NCBI GenBank assembly: GCA_018671895.1
Contig: JABHGV010000058.1
Coordinates: 12,759 to 76,758, forward strand
Length of the DNA: 64,000 nucleotides
Source of the DNA: Rhodospirillaceae bacterium
Lineage (GTDB): Bacteria > Pseudomonadota > Alphaproteobacteria > Rhodospirillales > JABHCV01
Reading direction: 5' to 3'
Part shown: piece after piece, positions 9,159 through 29,084 of the stretch
Position numbering within the stretch: position 1 is the first letter of the stretch
Layout: every line of letters starts with the position of its first letter
Notes under the pieces: model-generated
The model's database searches: none
What the model was told of the DNA's origin: nothing
What the model saw: the letters and a program-made list of their open reading frames with translations, nothing else
Program-made: the position numbers and the translations under genes

Positions 9159-9766
9159 CGGCACAAAACAAACTGACTGACGAATGCGCGCTCGTCGCCG
9201 GCAGCTCCAGCGGCCTTGGTCTTGCCATCGCCAAAGCACTGGCCGATGAAGGCTGTGATCTGCATATGGCCGGGCGCAACCCCGATCATCTTGACGATGC
9301 CGCCGAAGACATTTCAGACAGCACCTCGGTCGATGTTGAAGCCCATGCAACCGACTTAAGCTCCGCCATCAATGCCGCGGCACTGGCCCTTGAATGTGAC
9401 GATTCAGGAATTCTGATTAATGCCTTTGGCGAGGCCCCGACCGGGAAAATCGTCGACCTGGAAGACGACGATTGGCGTCAGGGCTTCGAGCTGAAGGTCT
9501 TCGCCACCATCAGCCTTTGTCGTGAAATGTTCGAAACCCTTGGCGATACCGGGGCCGGGATCATCATCAATATCGGTTGTCCTGAAGCTACTGGCATATG
9601 CGCCGATACCATCAACGCCACGCTCAGGACATTCTCGGAACGCCTGGATGAAGAAGCCCGCCGTGATGGTGTCAGGGTGCTGTTCCATCAACCATCACCA
9701 GATATGGATGATAAGGAAAACGCAAACGACATCGTTAAAATAATACTTGGACATTTTGCATCGTGA
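9155..9766 (+). CDS. short-chain dehydrogenase-like protein, apparently lacking the YxxxK catalytic motif
   Basis: Rossmann motif [14 protein letters not shown] is present. I found no YxxxK where it is expected (...[11 protein letters not shown]...). ATGA overlap with nadB. Confidence 0.55.
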
Positions 9767-10431
9767 CTGAACAAATCTCTCTGCCCGAAACTGCAGCCTT
9801 TACTAAGGGCGTTTACACTCAGGTCCTGAACCGGCCCGCAGGCGACGACAAACGCCCTGCCCTGTTCCTGGATCGCGACGGTGCCGTCGTTGTCGAGGCC
9901 CACTACCTGCACGAAGTCGACAAGGTAAAGCTGATTGAAGGTGCCGCCGAGACCATTCGCGCCGCCAATGAACTGGGTATCCCTGTTATCTTCGTCACCA
10001 ATCAGGCCGGTGTCGGTTATGGATATTTTGGCTGGGACGCATTTCTTGCCGTACAAGAACGCATCCTCGGCGACCTTGCAGAACTCGGCGCCAGCGTCGA
10101 TGGTGTCTATGCCTGTCCGTTCCATGAAAAGGGCAAACCGCCCTATGACCATCCGGACCACCCAGCCCGCAAACCCAACCCCGGCATGCTGTTAAGCGCG
10201 GCCGACGCCATGAACATCGACTTGGGCCGTTCGTGGATTGTCGGTGATCGGGCCGGTGATATTGGTGCCGGTTTCAACGCCGGGTTGCGCGGCGGCATTC
10301 ACGTGCTGACCGGACACGGCGAACGCGAGGGCGAGCGTGAACAGGCCTTGGACTTCAACGACGAGCGTTTCCAGTCTATCGGCGCGGACTCCATCGCTGG
10401 CGTCCCCGACCTGATTGATTTATTTAATTAA
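9763..10431 (+). CDS. HAD-IIIA phosphatase (D,D-heptose 1,7-bisphosphate phosphatase GmhB / histidinol-phosphatase family)
   Basis: HAD motifs FLDRDG, VTNQAGV, KPNPGM and GDRAGD are present. It overlaps the preceding gene by 4 nt. Confidence 0.7.
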   Translation: MTEQISLPETAAFTKGVYTQVLNRPAGDDKRPALFLDRDGAVVVEAHYLHEVDKVKLIEGAAETIRAANELGIPVIFVTNQAGVGYGYFGWDAFLAVQERILGDLAELGASVDGVYACPFHEKGKPPYDHPDHPARKPNPGMLLSAADAMNIDLGRSWIVGDRAGDIGAGFNAGLRGGIHVLTGHGEREGEREQALDFNDERFQSIGADSIAGVPDLIDLFN

Positions 10432-12017
10432 TTTTTATCCAGAACGATCCTATTGCGACCGCCGTGCTTGGCCTCGTGTAGCGCCTTGTCCGATTCTTCC
10501 AGCAATTCAGATGATGTCTGGTGTTTCGGGTATTCGGCAATGCCGCAGCTTAAGGTCACAGAAAAATTTCCGGCATCGGATTTATGGGTGATGGCGGCAA
10601 AGTCCTGACGGATTTTATCGAGGATCCCGAACGCCTGTTCCGCTGTCGTGTCGGCCAACACCGCCGCGAATTCCTCGCCGCCCATGCGCCCGATGATATC
10701 CGTTCCACGCAGGCGTTGTTTCAACAACCGGGATAAACTTTTGATGACAACGTCGCCGATCGCATGACCGTGGGTATCGTTGACGGCCTTGAAATGGTCG
10801 ATGTCCAACGCCGCCACGGTAAGCGAGCTTTTACCACGATGGGCGCGGGCGACTTCCTTATCCAGAAACTCGTGGGTCGTCGTGTGATTGAGCAAGCCCG
10901 TCATGCTGTCACGAACCATTTGCGAACGCAGCATGCGGAAACGACGAACCCGCATGCTGATCGAACTAATCAAATGATTCGATTTGATCGGCTTGGTCAG
11001 AAAATCATCACCACCGGCACGCATGGCGACCAGCTGTTTGTCGACATCGGCCTCGCCGGACAGGAAAACAATGGGCACACCGGAAAAGCTTTCCTCTTGA
11101 CGGACCACGGCGGCCAATTCCTGGCCGTTGCAATCGGGCATGTATAGATCCATGAGAATAAGCTCGGGCGAATAATCTTCGAGCGTCTCCATAATCTTCA
11201 ACGGTTCGGTAATAAACTCGGCGATCATTCCGGCACTTTGCAGAATGGTTTGCGTATAGCGTGCGGTGCTGGAATCGTCATCGACGATCAGAATTCTGAA
11301 ATCCTCGCCAGTGCTGGAAATGACCATTTGATCAAGGATATCGACAATGTCAGTCGTCAACACCGGATGGCCGAGGAAATATTCCGAATAGGCCCGCGCC
11401 GCTTTAAGCCGGGTCTGGATGTCATCTTTTTCCGACAACACGATCAGGGGACACAGCAGACGACTGTCATCGTGCAACGCGCCCAGTATTTCAAGGATCG
11501 AATCTTCTGCCCCATCCATATCCAAATCGAAAATAATGCCTAAGGGGTCGGCGTCGATCAGCGCATCGGCAAGGCCGTCATCGGCCTTTAAGTAACTGGC
11601 CTTGAAATCAAAGCCTCCAAGCTCATCGCCGATCCGCTGCAAAGCATCGTGATCTTTGCCGATCAGGGTCACCGTCCTGTTTTCGACGTCAGCATCCATG
11701 CCGTCGACGGCGAACAGCGTCGTCTCGCCGGGCTTCTTGCCCAGAACATAAATCAGACTCGGCGATTTGACCTGAATATTGGCGACTTCCGGGTCGGCAA
11801 CAAACACGGTCGCTGCCGGACGTTCCAGACGCACCAGTCGGCCTTTGCTGACTTCCAGTTGCAAGCGGTTACCGGCGCTGGCGACGATTTCGACATTGCC
11901 GGTGCTGGGCGTCAGGTTTGCAACCTGCTGGGCCGGGGCCGGTGTCGCGCTTGAAAGCATGCCGATCGAGACAGTTGCGGCGATAATTTTCGAAATATGT
12001 TTTTTCATGATCATCAT
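10428..12017 (-). CDS. chimeric protein: signal peptide, secretin-type N-terminal pilus domain, receiver-like domain, receiver domain, then a GGDEF diguanylate cyclase
   Basis: The N-terminus MKKHISKIIAATVSIGMLSSATPAPAQQ is followed by a CpaC-N-like segment. The receiver has ILIVDDD / LILMDLYMPDCNG / FLTKP. The GGDEF domain has active site GGEEF and I-site RGTD. Confidence 0.85.
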   Translation of the reverse strand: MMIMKKHISKIIAATVSIGMLSSATPAPAQQVANLTPSTGNVEIVASAGNRLQLEVSKGRLVRLERPAATVFVADPEVANIQVKSPSLIYVLGKKPGETTLFAVDGMDADVENRTVTLIGKDHDALQRIGDELGGFDFKASYLKADDGLADALIDADPLGIIFDLDMDGAEDSILEILGALHDDSRLLCPLIVLSEKDDIQTRLKAARAYSEYFLGHPVLTTDIVDILDQMVISSTGEDFRILIVDDDSSTARYTQTILQSAGMIAEFITEPLKIMETLEDYSPELILMDLYMPDCNGQELAAVVRQEESFSGVPIVFLSGEADVDKQLVAMRAGGDDFLTKPIKSNHLISSISMRVRRFRMLRSQMVRDSMTGLLNHTTTHEFLDKEVARAHRGKSSLTVAALDIDHFKAVNDTHGHAIGDVVIKSLSRLLKQRLRGTDIIGRMGGEEFAAVLADTTAEQAFGILDKIRQDFAAITHKSDAGNFSVTLSCGIAEYPKHQTSSELLEESDKALHEAKHGGRNRIVLDKN

Positions 12018-12028
12018 TCCTTGCCCTT

Positions 12029-12856
12029 CTATTCGGCCTTGTCGCCGCGCAGCACATTGATCTGCCCACCGCCGGTGCTTCCGGCGACCAGGGAATTGAC
12101 TTCGGTGTCCAGGGTGAAGCCGCTGGGACGCGTTTCGGCGAATGCAACATCGTTGCGTGCCAGGCTTTGCAGGCTCAGCGACAGGTTACCCATGGCCATG
12201 CCGACGGCGACTTTTTCCGCCTGCTTCGGTGTCACTTCCATGGTTACCGTTTTCGCCGGGCTGACTTCGCCGTCCTTGCTTTCGGTTTTCTGGTCGATGG
12301 CCAACACGCGAAGGCCGGTCAACAGGGTCTTGCTGACATAGCGCGCCCGGCTTTCACCGTCGCCGCCCTTGGCATTGAATTTCGAGGTCAGGATCAAATC
12401 GACACGATCGCCCGGAAAGATGAAGCCGGAAATACCGGACGTCGCATTGACCGGAACCGATACGGCGCGATTGCCGACGTTCAGTACGGCGGCCAGGAAA
12501 CCGCGATCACCGGGATGCACGACCAGCGCGTCGGTAATGGGCTGGCCGGGTGTCAGGGCATTGCGAACGACAGAAGCTTCAAACTCCTTGATTTCGCGCT
12601 TGCCCTTGACGACATAGCCATCGGCTATACCGTCTTCGGGCCATGGCAGCCATTTCAGTTTGGCAGCCCGAACGAAGCTGCCTGCCCTTAATTCTTCGGT
12701 GGCGACCAGGACTTCGGTAGTTTCCTGACGCTCAGCCGGTGTTGCCAAGGCCTTAAAACTGGCTCGTTCCGCATTGATCCAGTTGTTGGCCATCAAGGCC
12801 GTGATGCCAGACACTGCGAAAGCGGCAATCAGGAACAGAATGTTTTTCAATGACAT
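12029..12856 (-). CDS. cpaB: Flp pilus assembly protein CpaB
   Basis: N-terminal TM anchor followed by SAF-like and RcpC/CpaB domains. It lies directly downstream of cpaA. Confidence 0.85.
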   Translation of the reverse strand: MSLKNILFLIAAFAVSGITALMANNWINAERASFKALATPAERQETTEVLVATEELRAGSFVRAAKLKWLPWPEDGIADGYVVKGKREIKEFEASVVRNALTPGQPITDALVVHPGDRGFLAAVLNVGNRAVSVPVNATSGISGFIFPGDRVDLILTSKFNAKGGDGESRARYVSKTLLTGLRVLAIDQKTESKDGEVSPAKTVTMEVTPKQAEKVAVGMAMGNLSLSLQSLARNDVAFAETRPSGFTLDTEVNSLVAGSTGGGQINVLRGDKAE

Positions 12857-12871
12857 GATCTGGGTCTCCCG

Positions 12872-13396
12872 TTACACGCCCCGGCCGAAGCCGAGCAGGT
12901 TAATGGCGACGACAACACCGCCAATAGCAATGGCAACGCCATAGGGAAGCGACGCGCCCATCAGCGCATTGCCGGAATGTCCACTGCCATATTTATCGAA
13001 AGTCAACATCAGCCCGTGGCGCAACGGCGACAGCCAGAACAAGGACATCAGGCCGCCGGCGAGGGCGCTGAAAATCAGAAAATCGGCGATATGAGGTTGA
13101 CCGGCCCACAGCGCAACAGCAGCCAGCATTTTGACATCGCCGCCACCCAGAACCTTGAAGGCAAACAGGGCGAAACCGGCCGCCAGCACGATACCACCGA
13201 CCATCAAACCGCCAATCCAATCGACGGAAACAGGGGCAGCAAGCACATAAACCGGATACAACGTGGCAATGGCCAATGTTATCCGGTTGGGAATACGGTA
13301 ACTGGAAAGGTCGCTGAAAGCCGCCGTGGCGAGCAACGCCAGAAAGGCGCCGATAACACCTGCGTAAATGAAAATTTCGAAAGTCACGTAAGTCAT
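12872..13396 (-). CDS. cpaA: A24 family prepilin peptidase CpaA
   Basis: Polytopic membrane protein with the two catalytic Asp contexts FSDLSSYRIPN and GGGDVKMLAA. Confidence 0.85.
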   Translation of the reverse strand: MTYVTFEIFIYAGVIGAFLALLATAAFSDLSSYRIPNRITLAIATLYPVYVLAAPVSVDWIGGLMVGGIVLAAGFALFAFKVLGGGDVKMLAAVALWAGQPHIADFLIFSALAGGLMSLFWLSPLRHGLMLTFDKYGSGHSGNALMGASLPYGVAIAIGGVVVAINLLGFGRGV

Positions 13397-13496
13397 GGCC
13401 TTGGGGTGCCTTTTGACTGGGGTTCGGGGTCTTCTTAAATGTTCAAATAATAATTCAATTTATACTTGGTGTTTTGCTGGCTTCCTGTCTCCTCCC

Positions 13497-13528
13497 CCCT
13501 TCGGGTCGGGTGGGGTAGACCCGAAGGG
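13497..13528 (-). other. 11-bp perfect-stem hairpin between flp and cpaA (possible attenuator or RNA-stabilising element)
   Basis: CCCTTCGGGTC (13497-13507) is the exact reverse complement of GACCCGAAGGG (13518-13528). No U-tract follows on the minus strand. Confidence 0.35.
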
Positions 13529-13573
13529 TAGACTTAAATGTCTGGGGAGGGACTTCTCAGGGAAGAAGTTCTG

Positions 13574-13753
13574 TTACTCGGCAACAGCGCCAGTAAGAGC
13601 GGTGGAAACCGCGGTGAACATTGTGTTCAAAGAACCACCCATGGCGGTCAGGGCGGCAATGGCGGCAACCGAGACGAGGGCGGCGATAAGGCCATATTCA
13701 ATGGCGGTGGCACCGGAATCGTCGTTCAGGAATTTGTTGGCAAGGTTTTTCAT
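13574..13753 (-). CDS. flp: Flp family type IVb pilin (59 aa; below the ORF-track length cutoff)
   Basis: My translation is MKNLANKFLNDDSGATAIEYGLIAALVSVAAIAALTAMGGSLNTMFTAVSTALTGAVAE. It carries the Flp motif G/ATAIEYGLI followed by a hydrophobic helix. Confidence 0.85.
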   Translation of the reverse strand: MKNLANKFLNDDSGATAIEYGLIAALVSVAAIAALTAMGGSLNTMFTAVSTALTGAVAE

Positions 13754-13904
13754 ATCAAATCTCCATTTGTTTAGGGATACAAATCATTCAATCGATGATT
13801 AATGATATGACAACTATTTAAGTATAGTCAAAATCTTTATTCACTTGTTATTTAGATGTGTATTTGGACTATATTTAAATAAAATATAGATAAAATTTTA
13901 TCTA

Positions 13905-14459
13905 TTACGAAGGACCTAATCCGCTGCCCATCTGGCTGGTCGAAAAAGCCGGATACGTTAGGGATGGACCGAAACCGGGAAAGCCGCTGAGCATCAGGAA
14001 CGGACGATCCAGATTAACCAGGCTGACCGACACCATCGGGATGATGCCGCCCGGCGTCGTTGCGTCGCCAAGCCCGACATCGGCATATTCGACAACCACG
14101 TTCGCGGCCTGAATATCTGGCTGTATCGCCTGCATTTCCGCAACCATGGTATCAAAGACCGCCGGTTGCACCGCCGCCGCCCCGGTGCATGACACACCGC
14201 CCCCGGACGACGTGCAACTGACGGTCCCGCCGGACGCAAGTCCGGAAACCTCCATAATCGGCAATGACAGCGCCACCGTGCGTACGCCCCGCCGGGTCGC
14301 CTCACTGGCGCGGTGATAATCAAATACGACCAGCGAGAACTCTAGAATAGACAAACAAATCAACACCAGGGCCGGCATCACGAATGCGAAACCGACCGCG
14401 GCCTCGCCACTCTCTTCGCGGCAAACCCGCGCGATCAGTGTTGTTTTACAATCCGACAT
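13905..14459 (-). CDS. TadE-like pilus assembly protein (pseudopilin-like)
   Basis: TadE-type N-terminus EESGEAAVGFAFVMPALVLICLSILEF. I chose the start at ATG 14459 (MSDCKTT...). The longer ORF start at 14507 would lie inside the upstream gene. Confidence 0.7.
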   Translation of the reverse strand: MSDCKTTLIARVCREESGEAAVGFAFVMPALVLICLSILEFSLVVFDYHRASEATRRGVRTVALSLPIMEVSGLASGGTVSCTSSGGGVSCTGAAAVQPAVFDTMVAEMQAIQPDIQAANVVVEYADVGLGDATTPGGIIPMVSVSLVNLDRPFLMLSGFPGFGPSLTYPAFSTSQMGSGLGPS

Positions 14460-14925
14460 AAGCCTGCTCGTGAGACAAGGTGATGGTAAACTCGGCAAGT
14501 CCGACAAAGGTCATCAATTCGGGAACCAGGGGATCCAAGGGAACATTTGCTTCCATGCGAACCACCGGGATAGCGGTTCCATCCAGATCATAGCTGCTGG
14601 TGGTAATGGAATAACTTGCCCCGGCCTTGCCCCAGCCACTGGTCAGAAAAGCACCGGAACCATCGATACTGCCTGTCTTTAAAATATTTTCGGCGATGGT
14701 GATGTCTGAAGCACTGAGCGGCATCTCTACCCGGGCCGCATACAGGGTTGCGGCGCGCAAGCCCTTCTCGACCGCATTGGCCTGAAAATAGGCGCGCCCA
14801 TATTCCTTCAGACCGCCAAACAACAGCAACAGAAACGGCGTCATCAACGCGAACTCGACGACGGCACTGCCGCGATCATCGGCTTTGAAACTTGGGATCT
14901 TATTCGACAAGTTTAACATTGGCAT
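14446..14925 (-). CDS. TadE-like pilus assembly protein
   Basis: N-terminus DDRGSAVVEFALMTPFLLLLFGG is the canonical TadE-like segment. Confidence 0.75.
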   Translation of the reverse strand: MPMLNLSNKIPSFKADDRGSAVVEFALMTPFLLLLFGGLKEYGRAYFQANAVEKGLRAATLYAARVEMPLSASDITIAENILKTGSIDGSGAFLTSGWGKAGASYSITTSSYDLDGTAIPVVRMEANVPLDPLVPELMTFVGLAEFTITLSHEQAYVGL

Positions 14926-16270
14926 GGAAGTCCGGGTCGTTGCTGGGGGTCAGAGTACGGACGATCTCGGCATAGATACCGCCCGCAGGCGCGCCATCGA
15001 CGGCCTCTGTAATGAACATCTCGAGGTAATTGCCGTTGGTCGGGTATTCGTGCGAGCCCTTGACGCCTTCGGACTGGCATTGCAACACGGCGACCTGAAC
15101 GAGACGGCGGGAATAGCCGTTGTCGGCAACCGTCGCTGTCGGTACGCCGTCGTAATCTGGATCATCGGGATGACTTGCATCAACCGGAATGTCGGTAGCC
15201 ATCGGCGTTACCGTGACGAATCCGGACGGCAGCGCTTCCTCAATGGGATAGATCGTCTGGCGGCCGTTGCGGGCGTATTCAAACCCCAATTCGTACAGGT
15301 AGACCTGATAGCGCGAGGCGTCCAGAAGGTCCGTCGGCAGCGGGGTCGAATGACGGTCCGCCCAATAAGTGGCGAGGTCCCAGTTGCCCGATCCCATATA
15401 AACGTTGGGGTCTGCGGCGACATCCGCGTCCTTGGGAAAATTAATCACGTTGGGAGCCGGATATGGCAACCCGCCCGGCAGGTCGAAGCGCGCATTGACG
15501 CCGTTTTTAACCTTGGTGGTCTTGACACCAGGCGCGGTGCCGACATCAAGGCCGTAGCAATCTGCCGGTTCGACTGCGGCAAGCGCGCCCTCGATGTCAC
15601 TGGCGCCTTGCGATCCGTCGGGCAAGGCAAGCAGTCCGTAATTACCCGGTGCCCAAGCCGTGCCACCGGACGGTGGCGGCTTCAACGCGATCTGTCGGCC
15701 AATGTTCGATTGCAGGGATAAATCCTGTGATGAATCCAGCTCGCCCGGATCGCAGATCATCAATGGCGGCGCATGACAGATAAACGGCTGCGACGACGCC
15801 GTGGCATGGGCATTCATGGTTTGCGTGTTCGGACCCGATGCCGTCACCAGCAACGGCTTGAACATGAAATCAATGCTCTTCGGGTCCAACTCAATTTCGA
15901 TGAACTTGCTATCTTCATCGCCGCTCGCGACGATCTTGTCGGGTTCAACCTCGCTATAAAAATCTACCGACTGCACCGTCAGCTCCGACGTGCCGCTGGT
16001 AATAAAGGACGCCTGACTCATGGCGTTCGTCGCCAGCGCTATCGCCCTCGACTGGGCACCGACACGACCGTCTAGCTGCGAGGCACCTGCCATCGCTCCG
16101 GCATCGGCCCGGTTCTGCATTTGCGAGCGCAGCACGCCCATGCGTCCGACATCCAGCACCAACGTCCCGGCGCCAAGTGCAAGAACACTGAAAAAACCTG
16201 TATAGACGGCGACTCCTCCGGCTTCGTCCCGAACGACCCGCTGAAACAATGAGTTGATTTTGTTTAACAT
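14900..16270 (-). CDS. TadG-like putative Flp pilus assembly protein
   Basis: N-terminus RDEAGGVAVYTGFFSVLALGAGTLVLDVGR is TadG/TadE-like, followed by a large extracytoplasmic domain. It is first in the tad gene string. Confidence 0.7.
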   Translation of the reverse strand: MLNKINSLFQRVVRDEAGGVAVYTGFFSVLALGAGTLVLDVGRMGVLRSQMQNRADAGAMAGASQLDGRVGAQSRAIALATNAMSQASFITSGTSELTVQSVDFYSEVEPDKIVASGDEDSKFIEIELDPKSIDFMFKPLLVTASGPNTQTMNAHATASSQPFICHAPPLMICDPGELDSSQDLSLQSNIGRQIALKPPPSGGTAWAPGNYGLLALPDGSQGASDIEGALAAVEPADCYGLDVGTAPGVKTTKVKNGVNARFDLPGGLPYPAPNVINFPKDADVAADPNVYMGSGNWDLATYWADRHSTPLPTDLLDASRYQVYLYELGFEYARNGRQTIYPIEEALPSGFVTVTPMATDIPVDASHPDDPDYDGVPTATVADNGYSRRLVQVAVLQCQSEGVKGSHEYPTNGNYLEMFITEAVDGAPAGGIYAEIVRTLTPSNDPDFHANVKLVE

Positions 16271-17374: not shown

Positions 17375-18724
17375 ATGATTTCCGAACTTTCAAAAAAATA
17401 CGACCTGATGGTGCCGCGTTATACCAGCTACCCGACGGCGCCTCATTTCAGCGAAACCGTCGATGCCGAAACCTACCGGCGCTGGCTCGGCGAGTTGGAC
17501 CCGAACATACCGCTGTCGCTGTACTTCCACATCCCGTTCTGCGACGAAATGTGCTGGTTCTGCGGCTGCTATACCAAGATCGTCAAACGCTATCAGCCGG
17601 TATCGGATTATCTGGACGTCCTGCTTGGAGAAATAGACCTTGCCGCCGATGCCTTGGGCACCCGTTTCAAGGCCAAGCACCTGCATTGGGGTGGCGGCAG
17701 CCCGACAATGCTAAAGGGCCCCGACTGGTCGCGCATCATCGACCGGCTTCGCGACCGCTTCGACATTGACGACACCGCCGCCATCGCCGTCGAACTGGAC
17801 CCACGCACGGCAACTGAAGATTACGTCAAGGCGCTGGCCACAGCCGGCGTCAATCGCGCCAGTATTGGTGTGCAAAGCTTCGATGACGACATCCAAAAAG
17901 CCATCAACCGCATCCAGCCCTACGCGATCACCGCCCAGGTTATTGGCTGGCTGCGCGATAACGACATCAACGACATCAACATGGACATGATGTACGGCCT
18001 GCCGAACCAGACCGTCGACATGGTCGCCCAGGAAACCGACATGGCCATCGGCCTGAAACCTGTGCGCGTCGCCCTGTTCGGCTATGCCCATGTGCCGTGG
18101 ATGAAGTCGCACATGAAAATGATCGACGAAGACGCCCTGCCCGATGCCGATGAACGCTGGAAACAATTCGAGGTCGCCTCGAAGAAATTCATCGATGCCG
18201 GATACATTGCCGTCGGCCTCGACCATTTCGCCCTGCCTGATGATGAAATGGCGGTGGCGCTGGAATCAAACGCCCTGCACCGAAATTTTCAGGGCTACAC
18301 GGCGGACTCGGCCCCGGCCATGCTCGGTTTCGGGGCCTCGGCCATCGGTCATTTGCCACAAGGCTATATACAGAATGCATCGCCGCTAAAGGAATACCGC
18401 GATACCGTCTCGGGCGGAGAATTCGCCATCGCCCGTGGCTTCGCGCTGGCCCCCGAAGACCGCCTGCGCAGCGAGATTATCGAACGCCTGATGTGCGACC
18501 TGGCTGTCGATCTGGACGAAGTCGCCAAAAGGCACAACGCCGATGTCACCATGTTCATTCCGGAAATGGCGAAGCTGACCGATATGGCCAACGATGGCAT
18601 TGTTACCATCGGCAACAACAAAATTCAGGTAACCGAAACCGGTCGTCCGTTTGTGCGACTGGTCGCCGCCGCCTTCGATGCTTATTTATCGCAAGGCAAG
18701 GCGCGGCATTCACGCGCCGTTTAG
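17375..18724 (+). CDS. hemN: oxygen-independent coproporphyrinogen III oxidase (radical SAM)
   Basis: Radical-SAM motif HIPFCDEMCWFCGC plus GGGSPT. 449 aa. Confidence 0.9.
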   Translation: MISELSKKYDLMVPRYTSYPTAPHFSETVDAETYRRWLGELDPNIPLSLYFHIPFCDEMCWFCGCYTKIVKRYQPVSDYLDVLLGEIDLAADALGTRFKAKHLHWGGGSPTMLKGPDWSRIIDRLRDRFDIDDTAAIAVELDPRTATEDYVKALATAGVNRASIGVQSFDDDIQKAINRIQPYAITAQVIGWLRDNDINDINMDMMYGLPNQTVDMVAQETDMAIGLKPVRVALFGYAHVPWMKSHMKMIDEDALPDADERWKQFEVASKKFIDAGYIAVGLDHFALPDDEMAVALESNALHRNFQGYTADSAPAMLGFGASAIGHLPQGYIQNASPLKEYRDTVSGGEFAIARGFALAPEDRLRSEIIERLMCDLAVDLDEVAKRHNADVTMFIPEMAKLTDMANDGIVTIGNNKIQVTETGRPFVRLVAAAFDAYLSQGKARHSRAV

Positions 18725-18924
18725 CAACAATCGCCTTCCTGAATGGGGGGGCAAGGCACATCGCCATAAGAGCAATAGACGCAACAATCCCCCTTGATCG
18801 GTTTCAAGACCGCACCGCACCCCTTGCAGTCATAGAAATACTGACACGCATCCGTTGGCATGGTCTCGGTTTCCTGATGGCCGCATTCGGGGCAGGTAAT
18901 GGTGGATCGCAGTTCCGTCATCAA
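18721..18924 (-). CDS. GDCCVxC domain-containing small Cys-rich protein
   Basis: 67 aa with CPECG, CKGCG, the GDCCVYC motif and a C-terminal GDCC. Confidence 0.7.
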   Translation of the reverse strand: MMTELRSTITCPECGHQETETMPTDACQYFYDCKGCGAVLKPIKGDCCVYCSYGDVPCPPIQEGDCC

Positions 18925-25641: not shown

Positions 25642-26322
25642 ATGAACACTCCTCGGACAAATAACGCCATCGGCCTCGAGACGGCTAAAATGCTGCTCGA
25701 TATCAAGGCCGTGAACTTCCGCCCCGAAGAGCCCTATATCCTGACATCCGGTTGGGCCAGTCCGGTCTATATCGACTGTCGCAAGGTGATTTCCTTTACC
25801 GAAGAACGCCGCCGCATCATGCAGCTGGCCGTCGAAATGCTCGATGACAAAATCGGTTTCGACAAGATCGATTATGTGGCCGGTGGCGAGACGGCGGGAA
25901 TTCCCTACGCCGCATGGATTGCCGAGGCCGCCTCGACGCCGATGCTCTATGTTCGCAAGAAACCGAAAGGCTTCGGGCGCAACGCCCAGATCGAAGGCGA
26001 CATGGCCGAAGGTGCGCGCGTCTTGTTGGTCGAAGATCTGGCTACCGACGGTGCCTCGAAAGTGACTTTCGTAAATGCGCTCAGAAATGCCGGGGCCGAG
26101 GTCAGTGATGCTTTCGTTGTGTTCTTTTACGGTGTTTTTTCCGGCGCCCTGGAAAATTTGCAAAAAGACGGCATCAACCTGCATTATTTAGCGACCTGGC
26201 ACGATGTTCTCGCCGCGGCCGAGGCCGGGAACTATTTTCCCTCTCAAGCCATTGAAGGCGTTAGAGAATTTCTAGCCGACCCGATCGCATGGTCGGTTAA
26301 CAACGGCGGCAAAGCTTCCTGA
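25642..26322 (+). CDS. pyrE: orotate phosphoribosyltransferase
   Basis: PRPP-binding motif VLLVEDLATDGAS, with SGWASPVYIDCR near the N-terminus. Confidence 0.9.
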   Translation: MNTPRTNNAIGLETAKMLLDIKAVNFRPEEPYILTSGWASPVYIDCRKVISFTEERRRIMQLAVEMLDDKIGFDKIDYVAGGETAGIPYAAWIAEAASTPMLYVRKKPKGFGRNAQIEGDMAEGARVLLVEDLATDGASKVTFVNALRNAGAEVSDAFVVFFYGVFSGALENLQKDGINLHYLATWHDVLAAAEAGNYFPSQAIEGVREFLADPIAWSVNNGGKAS

Positions 26323-27850
26323 AGAAAGACCGTAAACCTGTCGGTTTTTCTGACATTTCCGGGTCACTGGATTCTGCAATAAATGGCAGTTTTGCGGTAA
26401 TCCTGAAGCCTCCGTGCTCGGGAAAATCCATGAAAATCTCGCCGCCATGGGCTCGAATGGCCGTCCGTGCAACCGCCAGCCCCAACCCCACCCCTCCGGT
26501 CTCCCGACTGCGAGAATTTTCTATCCGGTAGAACGGCGCAAACACCTGTTCTTGCTCACTTTTTTGGATACCCGGGCCATCGTCCGTGACCATAATCCGC
26601 ACCACTGAATCATCTTGAACAAACGACACTTCGGCACGCCCCCCATATTGGCAGGCATTGTCGATCAGATTCTGAAAGGCCCTTTTCAGCGCTGTTGATC
26701 GCCCTCGGAAAATGAGCTTCTCCGGCCCAGAACAGATAGCATCCTTGCCGCCGTCAACGGCATCATCAACAAGGCTTTGCAACATCGCAGCAAGATCAAA
26801 ACGGGCCGTTGGTTCGTCAGCAGCCTCATCGCGCGCAAATGACAGGGTGGCCGCGATCATTTCTTCCATCTGGACAAGGTCGGCCATCATCTTGTGTTTC
26901 TGTTCTTCGTCTGCAATCAGTTCGGCCCGCAGTCGCATACGGGTAATCGGCGTTCGAAGATCATGCGAGATCGCAGCCAACATCTGCGTGCGGTCATGAA
27001 TGAAGCTGCGCAGCTTTCGCTGCATATCATTAAAGGCTATGGAGGCGCGGCGAACCTCGCGCGGTCCGTCTTCGGCAAGGGGTGGCGCATTGACGTCCCG
27101 TCCCAGCCTTTCGGCGGCCTTGGCGAACAACCCCAGCGGCCCGGCAGAACGATGAACGGCCCAGATCGAAAATATAATGACGGCAAACATCATCAAGGTG
27201 ATGCTTAACATTCCTTGCGACCACCAGAACGGCCTGAACCTTTCCGCTGGGGCCGCGACATTGAGCCAACTGTCATCTGACAGGCGCAAGGATGCTACCA
27301 ACACACGCCCTCCGTGCCATAGCCTGGACATACGACCGAACCGACTAATTTCATTTTCGCGTCCCATATGGTGGCGCATGGCGAACATGGGATCGTCATC
27401 ACTTTCCCAATGTTCATCACCGTCATGCCCCCGCCGGGAACGCCAATGTTCGGGGATGGTTTCGGGCATTGTCTGCTGGACCTGTCGAAAGGAGACGCGG
27501 ACACCATCTTCATCGACGTTATCGAGATAATGAACCAGCGACTTCCTGAGTGCCCGCAACCGCCAGCTTTTATCGTTTACTGGCGGCAGAATGCTGCGCT
27601 GTGTCCAGGTGAAGCTGAACCCCGGCCCCCACAACGTGCGAGCAACTTCTATTCGCCGATCCGGTGGCGTGTGCTCCAGGGTCTCGTAGGCAGCGACAAT
27701 TCTCTCGGACATCTGTCTGCCGCTGATCGTCGATAATTCCTCATCACGGGTGCCGGAATAAATGGCGAGGCTGATGAGGTGCGAGACAATCAGTCCGGCA
27801 AGCAGCACCAGAACGGTCCGACCAAAGATGGAATTCGGCAGAATTCTCAT
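26297..27850 (-). CDS. sensor histidine kinase (EnvZ-like) with a His/Asp-rich periplasmic loop
   Basis: Two TM segments, a HAMP domain, H-box AAISHDLRTPIT, N-box NLIDNACQY and G-box GGVGLGLAV. The periplasmic stretch reads EHWRSRRGHDGDEHWESDDDPMFAMRHHMG. Confidence 0.85.
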   Translation of the reverse strand: MRILPNSIFGRTVLVLLAGLIVSHLISLAIYSGTRDEELSTISGRQMSERIVAAYETLEHTPPDRRIEVARTLWGPGFSFTWTQRSILPPVNDKSWRLRALRKSLVHYLDNVDEDGVRVSFRQVQQTMPETIPEHWRSRRGHDGDEHWESDDDPMFAMRHHMGRENEISRFGRMSRLWHGGRVLVASLRLSDDSWLNVAAPAERFRPFWWSQGMLSITLMMFAVIIFSIWAVHRSAGPLGLFAKAAERLGRDVNAPPLAEDGPREVRRASIAFNDMQRKLRSFIHDRTQMLAAISHDLRTPITRMRLRAELIADEEQKHKMMADLVQMEEMIAATLSFARDEAADEPTARFDLAAMLQSLVDDAVDGGKDAICSGPEKLIFRGRSTALKRAFQNLIDNACQYGGRAEVSFVQDDSVVRIMVTDDGPGIQKSEQEQVFAPFYRIENSRSRETGGVGLGLAVARTAIRAHGGEIFMDFPEHGGFRITAKLPFIAESSDPEMSEKPTGLRSFFRKLCRRC

Positions 27851-28578
27851 GTCTCGACATCCGGCGTAAACATATAACCGCCGCTTCTGATAGTCTTGAT
27901 ATGAGACGGGTTCTTGGCATCGTCCTCGATCTTGCGGCGCAGGCGGCTGACCTGCACATCGATACTGCGATCAAAGGGCTGAGCTTCACGTCCTCGCGCC
28001 AGATCGAGCAACTGTTCTCGGCTCATAACCCTTCCGGGGTGCGTGACAAAGGCATACAGAAGCTCGAACTCGCCACCGCTGAGACTAACCAGAACACCAT
28101 CGGGTGAGGTCAGTTCGCGCTTGTTCGCATCCAGAGACCAACCAGCAAAGCGATATCCCGTACCGTCACTTCGATCACCGCCGCCGGGCTTGCCCTTGCC
28201 GCCAATTCCTTCAAAGCGGCGCAAGACGGCCTTGATCCGGGCCAACAGTTCGCGCGGATTAAACGGTTTCGCCAGATAATCATCGGCACCCATTTCAAGG
28301 CCAATGATGCGGTCGGTTTCCTCGCCCATGGCCGTCAACATGATGATCGGCATCTTGGATTCAGCCCGCAGGTTACGGCACAAGGTCAATCCGTCTTCGC
28401 CGGGCAGCATCAGATCGAGAACGATCAGATCGATATTCCAGTCAGCCAGTGCCTTTTTCATCTCGCGGCCATCGGCAACCGTCGTGGTGCGCAAACCATG
28501 TTTGTCGAGGAACCGCCCCAGCAAATCTCGGATCTCGCGGTCGTCATCAACGATTAAAATGTGAGGCGTCGTTTCCAT
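27847..28578 (-). CDS. OmpR-family response regulator
   Basis: METTPHILIVDDDREIRDLL, DLIVLDLMLPGEDG, and a winged-helix C-terminus (RLRRKIEDD...IKTIRSGGY). I chose the start at ATG 28578 rather than the ORF-track start at 28800. Confidence 0.9.
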   Translation of the reverse strand: METTPHILIVDDDREIRDLLGRFLDKHGLRTTTVADGREMKKALADWNIDLIVLDLMLPGEDGLTLCRNLRAESKMPIIMLTAMGEETDRIIGLEMGADDYLAKPFNPRELLARIKAVLRRFEGIGGKGKPGGGDRSDGTGYRFAGWSLDANKRELTSPDGVLVSLSGGEFELLYAFVTHPGRVMSREQLLDLARGREAQPFDRSIDVQVSRLRRKIEDDAKNPSHIKTIRSGGYMFTPDVET

Positions 28579-28624
28579 ATCGCCGACTATAGCGCCTTCG
28601 AAACAAACACACCCCCAAATCATG

Positions 28625-28667
28625 GTAACGGCGCGTAACAAACGGGGCCGCTGAAACATTTGGTTAC
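28625..28667. promoter_or_regulatory. GTAAC direct repeat at 10-bp phasing plus an inverted copy, in a divergent intergenic region
   Basis: GTAAC at 28625 and 28635, with GTTAC (its reverse complement) at 28663. The repeats lie between the OmpR-like gene and the Met/His-rich gene. Confidence 0.3.
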
Positions 28668-28757
28668 AAAAACACCCCGAGTCCGAAATACCACGGCAAC
28701 AAGTAGGTGTTTGAATGAACCCATCAAAACATTCAACCGAACCGATGGAGACGAACA

Positions 28758-29084
28758 ATGAAAAACAGAACTTTGACTTTAACGGCGGCGGCAACGGCAA
28801 TTGCGCTTGTCACTGCCTTCACCGCCTTTCCCGCAATGGCGCATAACCCCCAGGGCATGGGGAATCATGACATGAAAAGCCAAGGCATGGGTATGGGCAA
28901 AGGAATGATGGGAAAGCACAAGGGCAATATGGCTGAACATCGCGGCAAGGGCATGAAAGGCCAATGCGAAGACCAGGACAAAATGAGCGAATACCGCCAA
29001 GAACACAGAGATGAGCACAAAGGCGAGCACATGGGCAAGAACATGGACAAGCATAAGGGCAACGGCCGTCACAACGCCCGTTGA
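28758..29084 (+). CDS. periplasmic Met/His-rich small protein (possible metal-binding protein)
   Basis: Signal peptide ...FTAFPAMA, then HNPQGMGNHDMKSQGMGMGKGMMGKHKGNMAEH...HKGEHMGKNMDKHKG. Confidence 0.6.
   Translation: MKNRTLTLTAAATAIALVTAFTAFPAMAHNPQGMGNHDMKSQGMGMGKGMMGKHKGNMAEHRGKGMKGQCEDQDKMSEYRQEHRDEHKGEHMGKNMDKHKGNGRHNAR

Follow-up and report, generated by a model that had tools for sequence, protein, structure and literature searches.

A cpaC–diguanylate cyclase chimera very probably created by a microhomology-mediated deletion in the tad locus of a natural Rhodospirillaceae population

Introduction

Does a single protein of the tad pilus locus combine a secretin-type, periplasmic domain with the cytoplasmic signalling modules of a diguanylate cyclase (DGC)? 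The question is raised by an open reading frame (ORF), here designated cpaC'-'dgc, in a 64-kb stretch of DNA (the window) from a metagenome-assembled genome (MAG) of a Rhodospirillaceae bacterium (GCA_018671895.1, contig JABHGV010000058.1). A preliminary description of this DNA had placed the ORF directly after flp, cpaA and cpaB, an order that we confirm with all four genes on the minus strand, and had offered three explanations for its makeup: an N-terminus that is not exported, a cyclase exported away from GTP, or a chimera of cpaC and a pleD-like gene born by deletion.

Nucleotide-level comparison with an intact allele of the same population bears out the last of these. We conclude with high confidence that the ORF is a real chimera, which arose when a single deletion at a microhomology removed 8,427 bp from the locus in a natural, near-clonal Rhodospirillaceae population.

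Results and discussion

The ORF carries the N-terminus of CpaC and the output half of a cyclase

In its longest form the ORF spans positions 10428-12017 on the minus strand and encodes 529 amino acids (aa) counted from the first ATG (MMIM...). The third ATG, at position 12008 (MKKHISK...), is favoured as the start, given an AAGGA Shine-Dalgarno sequence 9 nt upstream and the NCBI call of 526 aa; the same ATG is the start of intact CpaC in all other contigs as well. An internal restart at Met107 was rejected, as it has no upstream Shine-Dalgarno sequence.

The Sec-type signal sequence reported for the start of the ORF is identical to residues 1-26 of P0130, the intact CpaC (469 aa) found in this population; its n-region is basic, its h-region is moderately hydrophobic, and it contains an A-P-A motif. 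Export of the CpaC N-terminus would be expected from the secretin family. Behind the signal peptide, Pfam places a T2SS-T3SS_pil_N domain (PF13629, hereafter pil_N) at ORF residues 50-116 (E 3.1e-17, 62.5 bits); in intact CpaC the domain occupies residues 47-116 and scores 72.1 bits. The secretin-type assignment of this segment is thus correct as to family and wrong as to completeness, since CpaC contributes only residues 1-103 of the chimera, and hence 47-103 of the domain, while the final 13 residues that Pfam aligns as pil_N derive from the cyclase. As had been noted, the secretin core is missing: Pfam finds no match to the Secretin domain (PF00263) in the ORF, although intact CpaC carries one at residues 251-412, and no copy lies elsewhere in the 64-kb window.

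The remainder of the ORF consists of the signalling modules that had been recognised in it. Pfam assigns Response_reg to ORF residues 242-353 (E 2.8e-25) and GGDEF (PF00990) to residues 369-523 (E 5.2e-40), and the expected motifs lie at residues 214 (FLGHP), 242 (ILIVDDD), 286 (LILMDLYMP), 339 (FLTKP), 437 (RGTD) and 446 (GGEEF), with RGTD preceding GGEEF at a distance of five residues. The first, receiver-like domain gave no Pfam match even at E <= 10 when residues 107-240 were scanned alone, and its fold is therefore shown by structure prediction: AlphaFold2 predicts that residues 115-235 adopt a (beta-alpha)5 fold, at pLDDT 84-93. At residues 1-110 the model is uninformative (pLDDT ~30-50), because the underlying alignment held only cyclase homologues, whose Hpt region is not homologous to CpaC. 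The top Foldseek matches of the model are full-length PleD (~450 aligned columns, E 5e-33), and the best solved relatives by sequence are DgcR (6zxm/6zxb) and PleD. The description of this part as a PleD-like REC-REC-GGDEF protein accordingly holds for the overall fold; it fails in that the phospho-acceptor receiver (REC) is the second of the two and in that the parent cyclase carries an Hpt domain, giving the order Hpt-REC(degenerate)-REC-GGDEF. No membrane span follows the signal peptide, as claimed earlier: no 19-residue Kyte-Doolittle window reaches 1.6, and the maximum beyond the N-terminus is 1.16. The coordinates of these and neighbouring features are collected in Table 1.

Table 1. Features of the chimeric ORF, its deletion alleles and its neighbours. 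Positions are those of the window; for the alleles, the cpaC and DGC nucleotide positions of the join are given.
Feature	Position	Strand	Basis or remark
Chimeric ORF cpaC'-'dgc (allele J1)	10428..12008	minus	526 aa, probable start 12008; identical to NCBI MAG protein MBT7356154.1 (P0001)
Native CpaC Sec signal peptide MKKHISKIIAATVSIGMLSSATPAPA, A-P-A cleavage motif	11931..12008	minus	100% identity to N-terminus of intact CpaC P0130
Cut-off pil_N (PF13629) domain of CpaC, CpaC residues 47-103	11703..11870	minus	Pfam
J1 junction	11699..11702	minus	4-nt GGCA common to cpaC nt 307-310 and DGC nt 385-388
Degenerate receiver-like domain from the cyclase gene (FLGHP replaces K-P motif)	11313..11675	minus	AlphaFold2 fold, Foldseek
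Canonical receiver domain (ILIVDDD, LILMDLYMP, FLTKP)	10959..11294	minus	Response_reg E 2.8e-25; PDB matches DgcR/PleD
GGDEF domain with GGEEF and RGTD I-site	10449..10913	minus	Pfam E 5.2e-40
HAD-family hydrolase, convergent	9763..10431	plus	3' end overlaps stop of chimera; right-hand syntenic anchor
Remaining upstream Tad block, every ORF intact	12029..16270	minus	Pfam; 99.98-100% identity to intact-locus contigs
cpaB	12029-12856	minus	Pfam
cpaA	12872-13396	minus	Pfam
flp	13574-13753	minus	Pfam
TadE-like, two genes	13905-14507 and 14446-14925	minus	Pfam
tadG-like	14900-16270	minus	Pfam
Allele J1	cpaC nt 310 / DGC nt 385		GGCA; 8,427 bp lost; window and L007 (GCA_018656385.1)
Allele J2	cpaC nt 79 / DGC nt 353		CGGCCC; 8,628 bp lost; L004 (JGI 3300028188)
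Allele J3	cpaC nt 1034 / DGC nt 726		GTTGACGAC; 8,049 bp lost; L003 (GCA_018651165.1) and L022 (ENA ERZ27250158)

Relatives and the surrounding population keep two separate genes

The closest homologues from other species are 551-553 aa long, share 72-76% identity with the query over ~80% of its length and are Hpt-REC-GGDEF proteins in Pfam; among these cyclase-side homologues pil_N occurs in the window protein alone. Their Hpt domain (PF01627) is weak in the intact cyclase of the window's own population (P0124, E 1.1e-4, residues 18-98) and is deleted in the window. Two relatives with cyclases of 71-76% identity (L001 and L002) share the gene order flp-cpaA-cpaB-cpaC-cpaD-cpaE-cpaF-tadB-tadC-TPR-MarR-DGC-HAD-SDR-NadB, in which cpaC encodes 471-473 aa with both pil_N and Secretin, the DGC is 553 aa long with Hpt, HAD is convergent, and the TPR gene (~270 aa) lies on the opposite strand between tadC and MarR. 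The order in the window matches these two relatives gene for gene with the exception of one absent block. The comparison of orthologous loci proposed in the preliminary description thus found a complete cpaC plus a separate cyclase in all relatives, and no conserved fusion. As the linkage of tad genes and cyclase is kept even in a relative of 52% identity (L028, JGI 3300028829), the two are conserved neighbours. In L028, beside the tad operon, a 1,109-aa dCache/PAS hybrid histidine kinase (L028:6616-9945) lies between MarR and an Hpt-REC-REC-GGDEF cyclase; it is not present in the species of the window, L001 or L002, and is a likely phosphodonor of the Tad-linked c-di-GMP module.

An intact locus of the same population could be rebuilt from two contigs (L008 and L005) that are 99.97-100% identical to the window on both flanks, and contigs of intact and chimeric alleles are 99.94-100% identical to it across shared flanks. 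The intact order is flp-cpaA-cpaB-cpaC-cpaD-cpaE-cpaF-tadB-tadC-TPR-MarR-DGC(Hpt-REC-REC-GGDEF)-HAD. The end of L008 and the start of L005 (ENA ERZ27250255, a k141 assembly) break inside tadC, where a 17-nt overlap (GTTACATTTTTATTTTT) restores a TadC of 323 aa; this break may be a T-rich spot of low coverage or another variant.

In protein alignment, the window protein tracks CpaC up to ...TLFAVDG and tracks the cyclase from ...NRTVTLIG on. Both parent genes, as they stand in the intact allele, match the chimera at 99.8-100% identity, which makes the fusion very recent. The 90%-identity clusters of P0001 and P0005 contain the full 552-aa Hpt cyclase (P0124, P0126), a second copy of the window junction (P0122) and two other chimeras. 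In one of these (P0127, 459 aa) the CpaC signal peptide (...ATPAPA) runs straight into the cyclase at LPEADAEDLGMDADV..., and in the other (P0128, 652 aa) CpaC residues 1-344 (...VPSLTT) run into the cyclase at DIVDILDQ.... Together with these clusters, the best 120 matches of each half, a survey that is not exhaustive for unrelated lineages, held pil_N and GGDEF on one protein only in these deletion alleles.

Three deletion alleles join the same two genes

Breakpoints of the three alleles, J1 (the window), J2 and J3, were mapped to the base against the rebuilt intact locus. J1 fuses cpaC at codon 103 with the cyclase gene at codon 130. Each junction lies at a microhomology, of 4 nt in J1, 6 nt in J2 and 9 nt in J3. 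The lost block comprises the 3' part of cpaC, cpaD, cpaE, cpaF, tadB, tadC, the TPR gene (encoding a TadD-like protein of 259 aa with a lipoprotein-like N-terminus), MarR and the Hpt region of the cyclase. The rest of the window encodes none of the lost genes, and their relocation within it was rejected on this ground.

J1, J2 and J3 must have arisen independently from the intact allele, as each retains sequence that is absent from the others. The contigs show no fewer than three independent deletion alleles between this one pair of genes, alongside the intact locus and often in one sample with it. The lengths of all three deletions are multiples of 3, and all fusions are in frame. On the cpaC side, J1 cuts inside pil_N, 13 residues before its end, J2 immediately past the signal peptide, and J3 inside Secretin (profile positions 1-104 of 169 remain); as mapped, these breakpoints disregard domain borders. 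On the cyclase side, J1 and J2 cut in the linker between Hpt and receiver, and J3 at the final helix of the degenerate receiver, such that every allele loses Hpt and retains REC and GGDEF. A site-specific or programmed rearrangement was rejected, the three junction sequences being unrelated.

Some contigs depart from these alleles in detail. In the final 61 nt of cpaC before J1, L007 (L007:1-61 versus window 11703-11763) differs at 3 positions and reads PRLVYVLG/TLLAVDG for the PSLIYVLG/TLFAVDG of the window; these may be contig-tip errors or a distinct J1 haplotype. Further contigs end away from J1-J3, at cpaC nt 184 (L016), cpaC nt 658 (L013) and DGC nt 793 (L027). Pairwise microhomology between these ends and those in tadC and MarR is <=2 nt, which gives no support for more alleles; the L016, L013 and L027 ends could mark further alleles with unseen partners, or drops in coverage.

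Pilus loss, or a new cyclase?

We consider it probable that the deletions are pilus-loss or attachment-loss variants and that the chimeric ORF is a by-product or scar of them, with loss of function. The J1 allele has lost the secretin core together with the genes for the ATPase and the platform proteins and the pilotin-like gene; Tad pili would no longer be assembled from the J1 locus, and the deletions would most likely have been selected, or tolerated, as variants lacking pili and attachment. Translation of the chimera would begin at the cpaC start, and the native CpaC signal peptide, with a broken pil_N behind it, would direct the product to Sec. Given that signal peptide in front, the cyclase part may be exported to where GTP and phosphodonors are lacking, or it may jam or be broken down, and the chimera would in effect be a null or crippled cyclase. 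The predicted Sec signal peptide argues against a cytoplasmic site with access to GTP and a phosphodonor.

Several points weigh against this interpretation. That all three alleles are in frame hints at a constraint beyond pilus loss, as do their starts, which all lie in cpaC past the signal peptide, and their ends, which all lie within the first 44% of the cyclase gene and leave REC-GGDEF intact. Frameshifts and small deletions across ~10 kb of tad genes would equally abolish pili; the clustering of endpoints may, however, be partly a matter of ascertainment, because the contig census is blind to frameshifts and small deletions in tad genes. Fast-folding cytoplasmic domains behind a Sec signal peptide sometimes stay in the cytoplasm, as signal-sequence fusions do. 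A second tad locus may possibly lie elsewhere in the genome, beyond the window. Finally, the samples may stem from one project, in which case assemblies counted here as independent may share sequencing runs.

The chief alternative is adaptive gene birth, which we hold to be possible and no better than tentative. It states that in-frame deletions were selected for a new, deregulated cyclase: the REC-GGDEF output would be freed from the Hpt module and the adjacent MarR gene, placed under the control of the tad-operon promoter and the translation start of cpaC, and carried to the inner membrane by a CpaC signal peptide left uncleaved or stalled as the cytoplasmic domains fold first. Three independent alleles of 8,427, 8,628 and 8,049 bp, all in frame, all with REC and GGDEF intact and all without Hpt and MarR, speak for it, as do endpoints that always fall in the same two genes among the contigs listed in censuses anchored on CpaB (10 of 19 contigs) and on HAD (10 of 23). 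Some samples carry the alleles at consensus level, J1 being spanned by the 78-kb contig of the window; homologues of ~420 aa that naturally lack Hpt exist (P0081, P0091, P0101, P0117); and there is a precedent in the FadA-FwsR fusions of Pseudomonas fluorescens (bioRxiv 10.1101/091744). Against this stands the size of the sample, in that three in-frame events have a chance probability of 1/27, or 1/9 without the discovery allele; at p ~0.04-0.11 the pattern is suggestive and selection is not proven. A cleavable Sec peptide (N-in, C-out, A-P-A) moreover predicts export or jamming, unlike the cytoplasm-facing transmembrane tether of FadA, and the cpaC-side breakpoints are scattered (past the signal peptide, inside pil_N, inside Secretin). 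The stronger form of this explanation, in which the three parallel deletions would be adaptive gene births in the wild, each abolishing Tad pili and creating an inner-membrane-targeted, Hpt-less REC-GGDEF cyclase, appears to us unlikely.

The junctions recur across assemblies

An assembly or binning artefact, by which a contig would falsely join cpaC to the cyclase gene of a genome that in reality has them as two separate genes, is very unlikely. The window does derive from a MAG, many contigs end in this region, and one MAG (GCA_018656385.1) contains an intact cpaC contig (L010) alongside the J1 contig (L007). J1 and J3, however, were each recovered in at least two assemblies, J1 in the window MAG and GCA_018656385.1 and J3 in GCA_018651165.1 and ENA ERZ27250158, across different pipelines (NCBI MAGs, ENA MEGAHIT, JGI). 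An assembly join separating two genes, which the preliminary description had named as a way to overturn the chimera, is therefore not what was found: the join is reproduced in independent assemblies, though a two-gene allele does coexist with it. The 4-9 nt microhomologies are far below assembly k-mers (tens of nt to 141 nt, with k141 in ENA) and too short for a de Bruijn graph to make these joins without spanning reads, which all but excludes misassembly.

Contig ends tell the same story. Three contigs (L014, L015, L017) end exactly on cpaC nt 310, one (L023) ends on DGC nt 726, and JGI 3300072015 has ends at cpaC nt 78 and ~DGC nt 386. Ends that sit exactly on breakpoints are expected of graph branches where several alleles truly coexist. 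As a control, the microhomologies of 4, 6 and 9 nt were found only in the true left and right pairs, with <=2 nt in other combinations of ends. To either side of the junctions the gene order is collinear with that of the intact locus, and the contig of the window continues through J1. Exact 30-mers from the cyclase side and the cpaB side had no match in metagenome and genome contig collections, which lack this population.

It is most improbable that the ORF is an evolved, conserved architecture in which a periplasmic pil_N senses the pilus machine and controls the cyclase to which it is fused. In its favour, one ORF has pil_N, REC and GGDEF above Pfam thresholds, and a functional link is plausible for a cyclase gene that is a conserved tad-operon neighbour. 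Against it, PF13629 with GGDEF was absent outside this population among the best 120 matches of either half, the closest homologues (72-76% identical) carry Hpt at that position, pil_N is short of 13 residues, there is no transmembrane segment, and near-identity to both parent genes marks a very recent fusion. A new combination of periplasmic and cytoplasmic modules, as proposed in the preliminary description, should also turn up beyond this population, and the proposal is not supported: among the best 120 matches of each half and their clusters, pil_N and GGDEF occur together only in deletion alleles of one near-clonal population, the J1 breakpoint lies inside pil_N, and all relatives keep separate genes.

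Relation to known systems

Compared with the Tad secretin CpaC/RcpA, the chimera has the same place in the operon and, over its first 103 residues, 100% identity to intact CpaC. It lacks the last strand of pil_N, the remaining periplasmic N-terminal region and the whole Secretin core; with the core deleted it is unable to form an outer-membrane channel, and with pil_N also cut short it is not a member of the secretin family.

Residues ~113-529 resemble Caulobacter PleD and the DgcR/WspR type in consisting of a REC-like domain, REC and GGDEF, with GGEEF and an RxxD I-site. Unlike in PleD, the receiver order is reversed, the degenerate receiver coming first and the phospho-acceptor second, the parent has an N-terminal Hpt, and the chimera has a Sec signal peptide. 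The parent gene, whose product is 99.8% identical to the chimera over residues 129-552, belongs to an uncharacterised, Tad-linked Hpt-REC-REC-GGDEF group of Rhodospirillales (P0002, P0006, P0124 and others). The chimera shares the right-hand neighbours of the parent gene (HAD, SDR, NadB and an M20 peptidase) and lacks its Hpt, start and promoter region as well as the upstream MarR gene. The chimera is a truncated member of the group, with a PleD-like fold.

The nearest parallel to the event itself comes from Pseudomonas fluorescens SBW25, in which nine in-frame deletions, each an independent event, placed the membrane part of fadA in front of the cyclase gene fwsR, and membrane relocalisation was necessary and sufficient for activation of the cyclase (Farr & Rainey, bioRxiv 10.1101/091744). 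In both cases several independent deletions fused an envelope-targeted N-terminus in frame to a downstream GGEEF cyclase. The FadA-FwsR deletions, however, measured a few hundred bp, were born in the laboratory and activate through true transmembrane domains, whereas the cpaC-cyclase deletions span 8-8.6 kb, come from a wild population and take out the pilus machine as well. What the chimera has at its N-terminus is a cleavable-type signal peptide, the sole hydrophobic element of the protein. A chimeric gene that is generated by deletion and includes a cyclase is a known kind of event; its natural, multi-allelic and parallel occurrence is new.

In placing an export signal ahead of domains that normally fold in the cytoplasm, the chimera also resembles the LamB-LacZ and MalE-LacZ hybrids. 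Those hybrids are engineered, and whether they jam, are degraded or are retained in the cytoplasm depends on expression level and folding rate.

For annotation, the combination of pil_N, REC and GGDEF is the scar of a recent deletion and should be passed on neither as a novel domain combination nor as a periplasmic cyclase; at this locus, the MAG that carries the chimera lacks the Tad secretion machine. Here multi-allelic structural polymorphism can be seen in a clean, natural case, with an intact allele and at least three independent microhomology-mediated deletions in a population that shows <1 base of difference per 3 kb of flank. This multi-allelic pattern suggests that Tad pili and the conserved Tad-linked c-di-GMP module have repeatedly been under selection, for which evasion of phages specific to the pilus, or a change from an attached to a free-living state, are conceivable drivers. 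Were the in-frame bias to hold at the level of reads, cyclase-activating fusions of the type seen in laboratory evolution would also arise and spread in nature; if the fusions are adaptive, the locus would be a natural replay of the FadA-FwsR route of fusion and relocalisation, so far known only from experimental evolution.

Neighbouring genes in the window

Upstream of the chimera, the remaining Tad genes, from cpaB to the tadG-like gene, are listed in Table 1. Farther from the junction, a cysteine-rich ORF of 67 aa (CPECG...CKGCG...GDCCVYCSYGDVPCPP...GDCC) lies at positions 18721-18924 on the minus strand, downstream of a HemN-like gene, and its position is kept in the intact-locus contigs. 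A tblastn search with the cyclase receiver also weakly matches an ordinary two-component pair on the minus strand, comprising a HAMP-HisKA-HATPase kinase gene (26297-27850) and an overlapping gene (27847-28800) for an OmpR-type response regulator with an N-terminal extension of ~80 residues ahead of its receiver domain.

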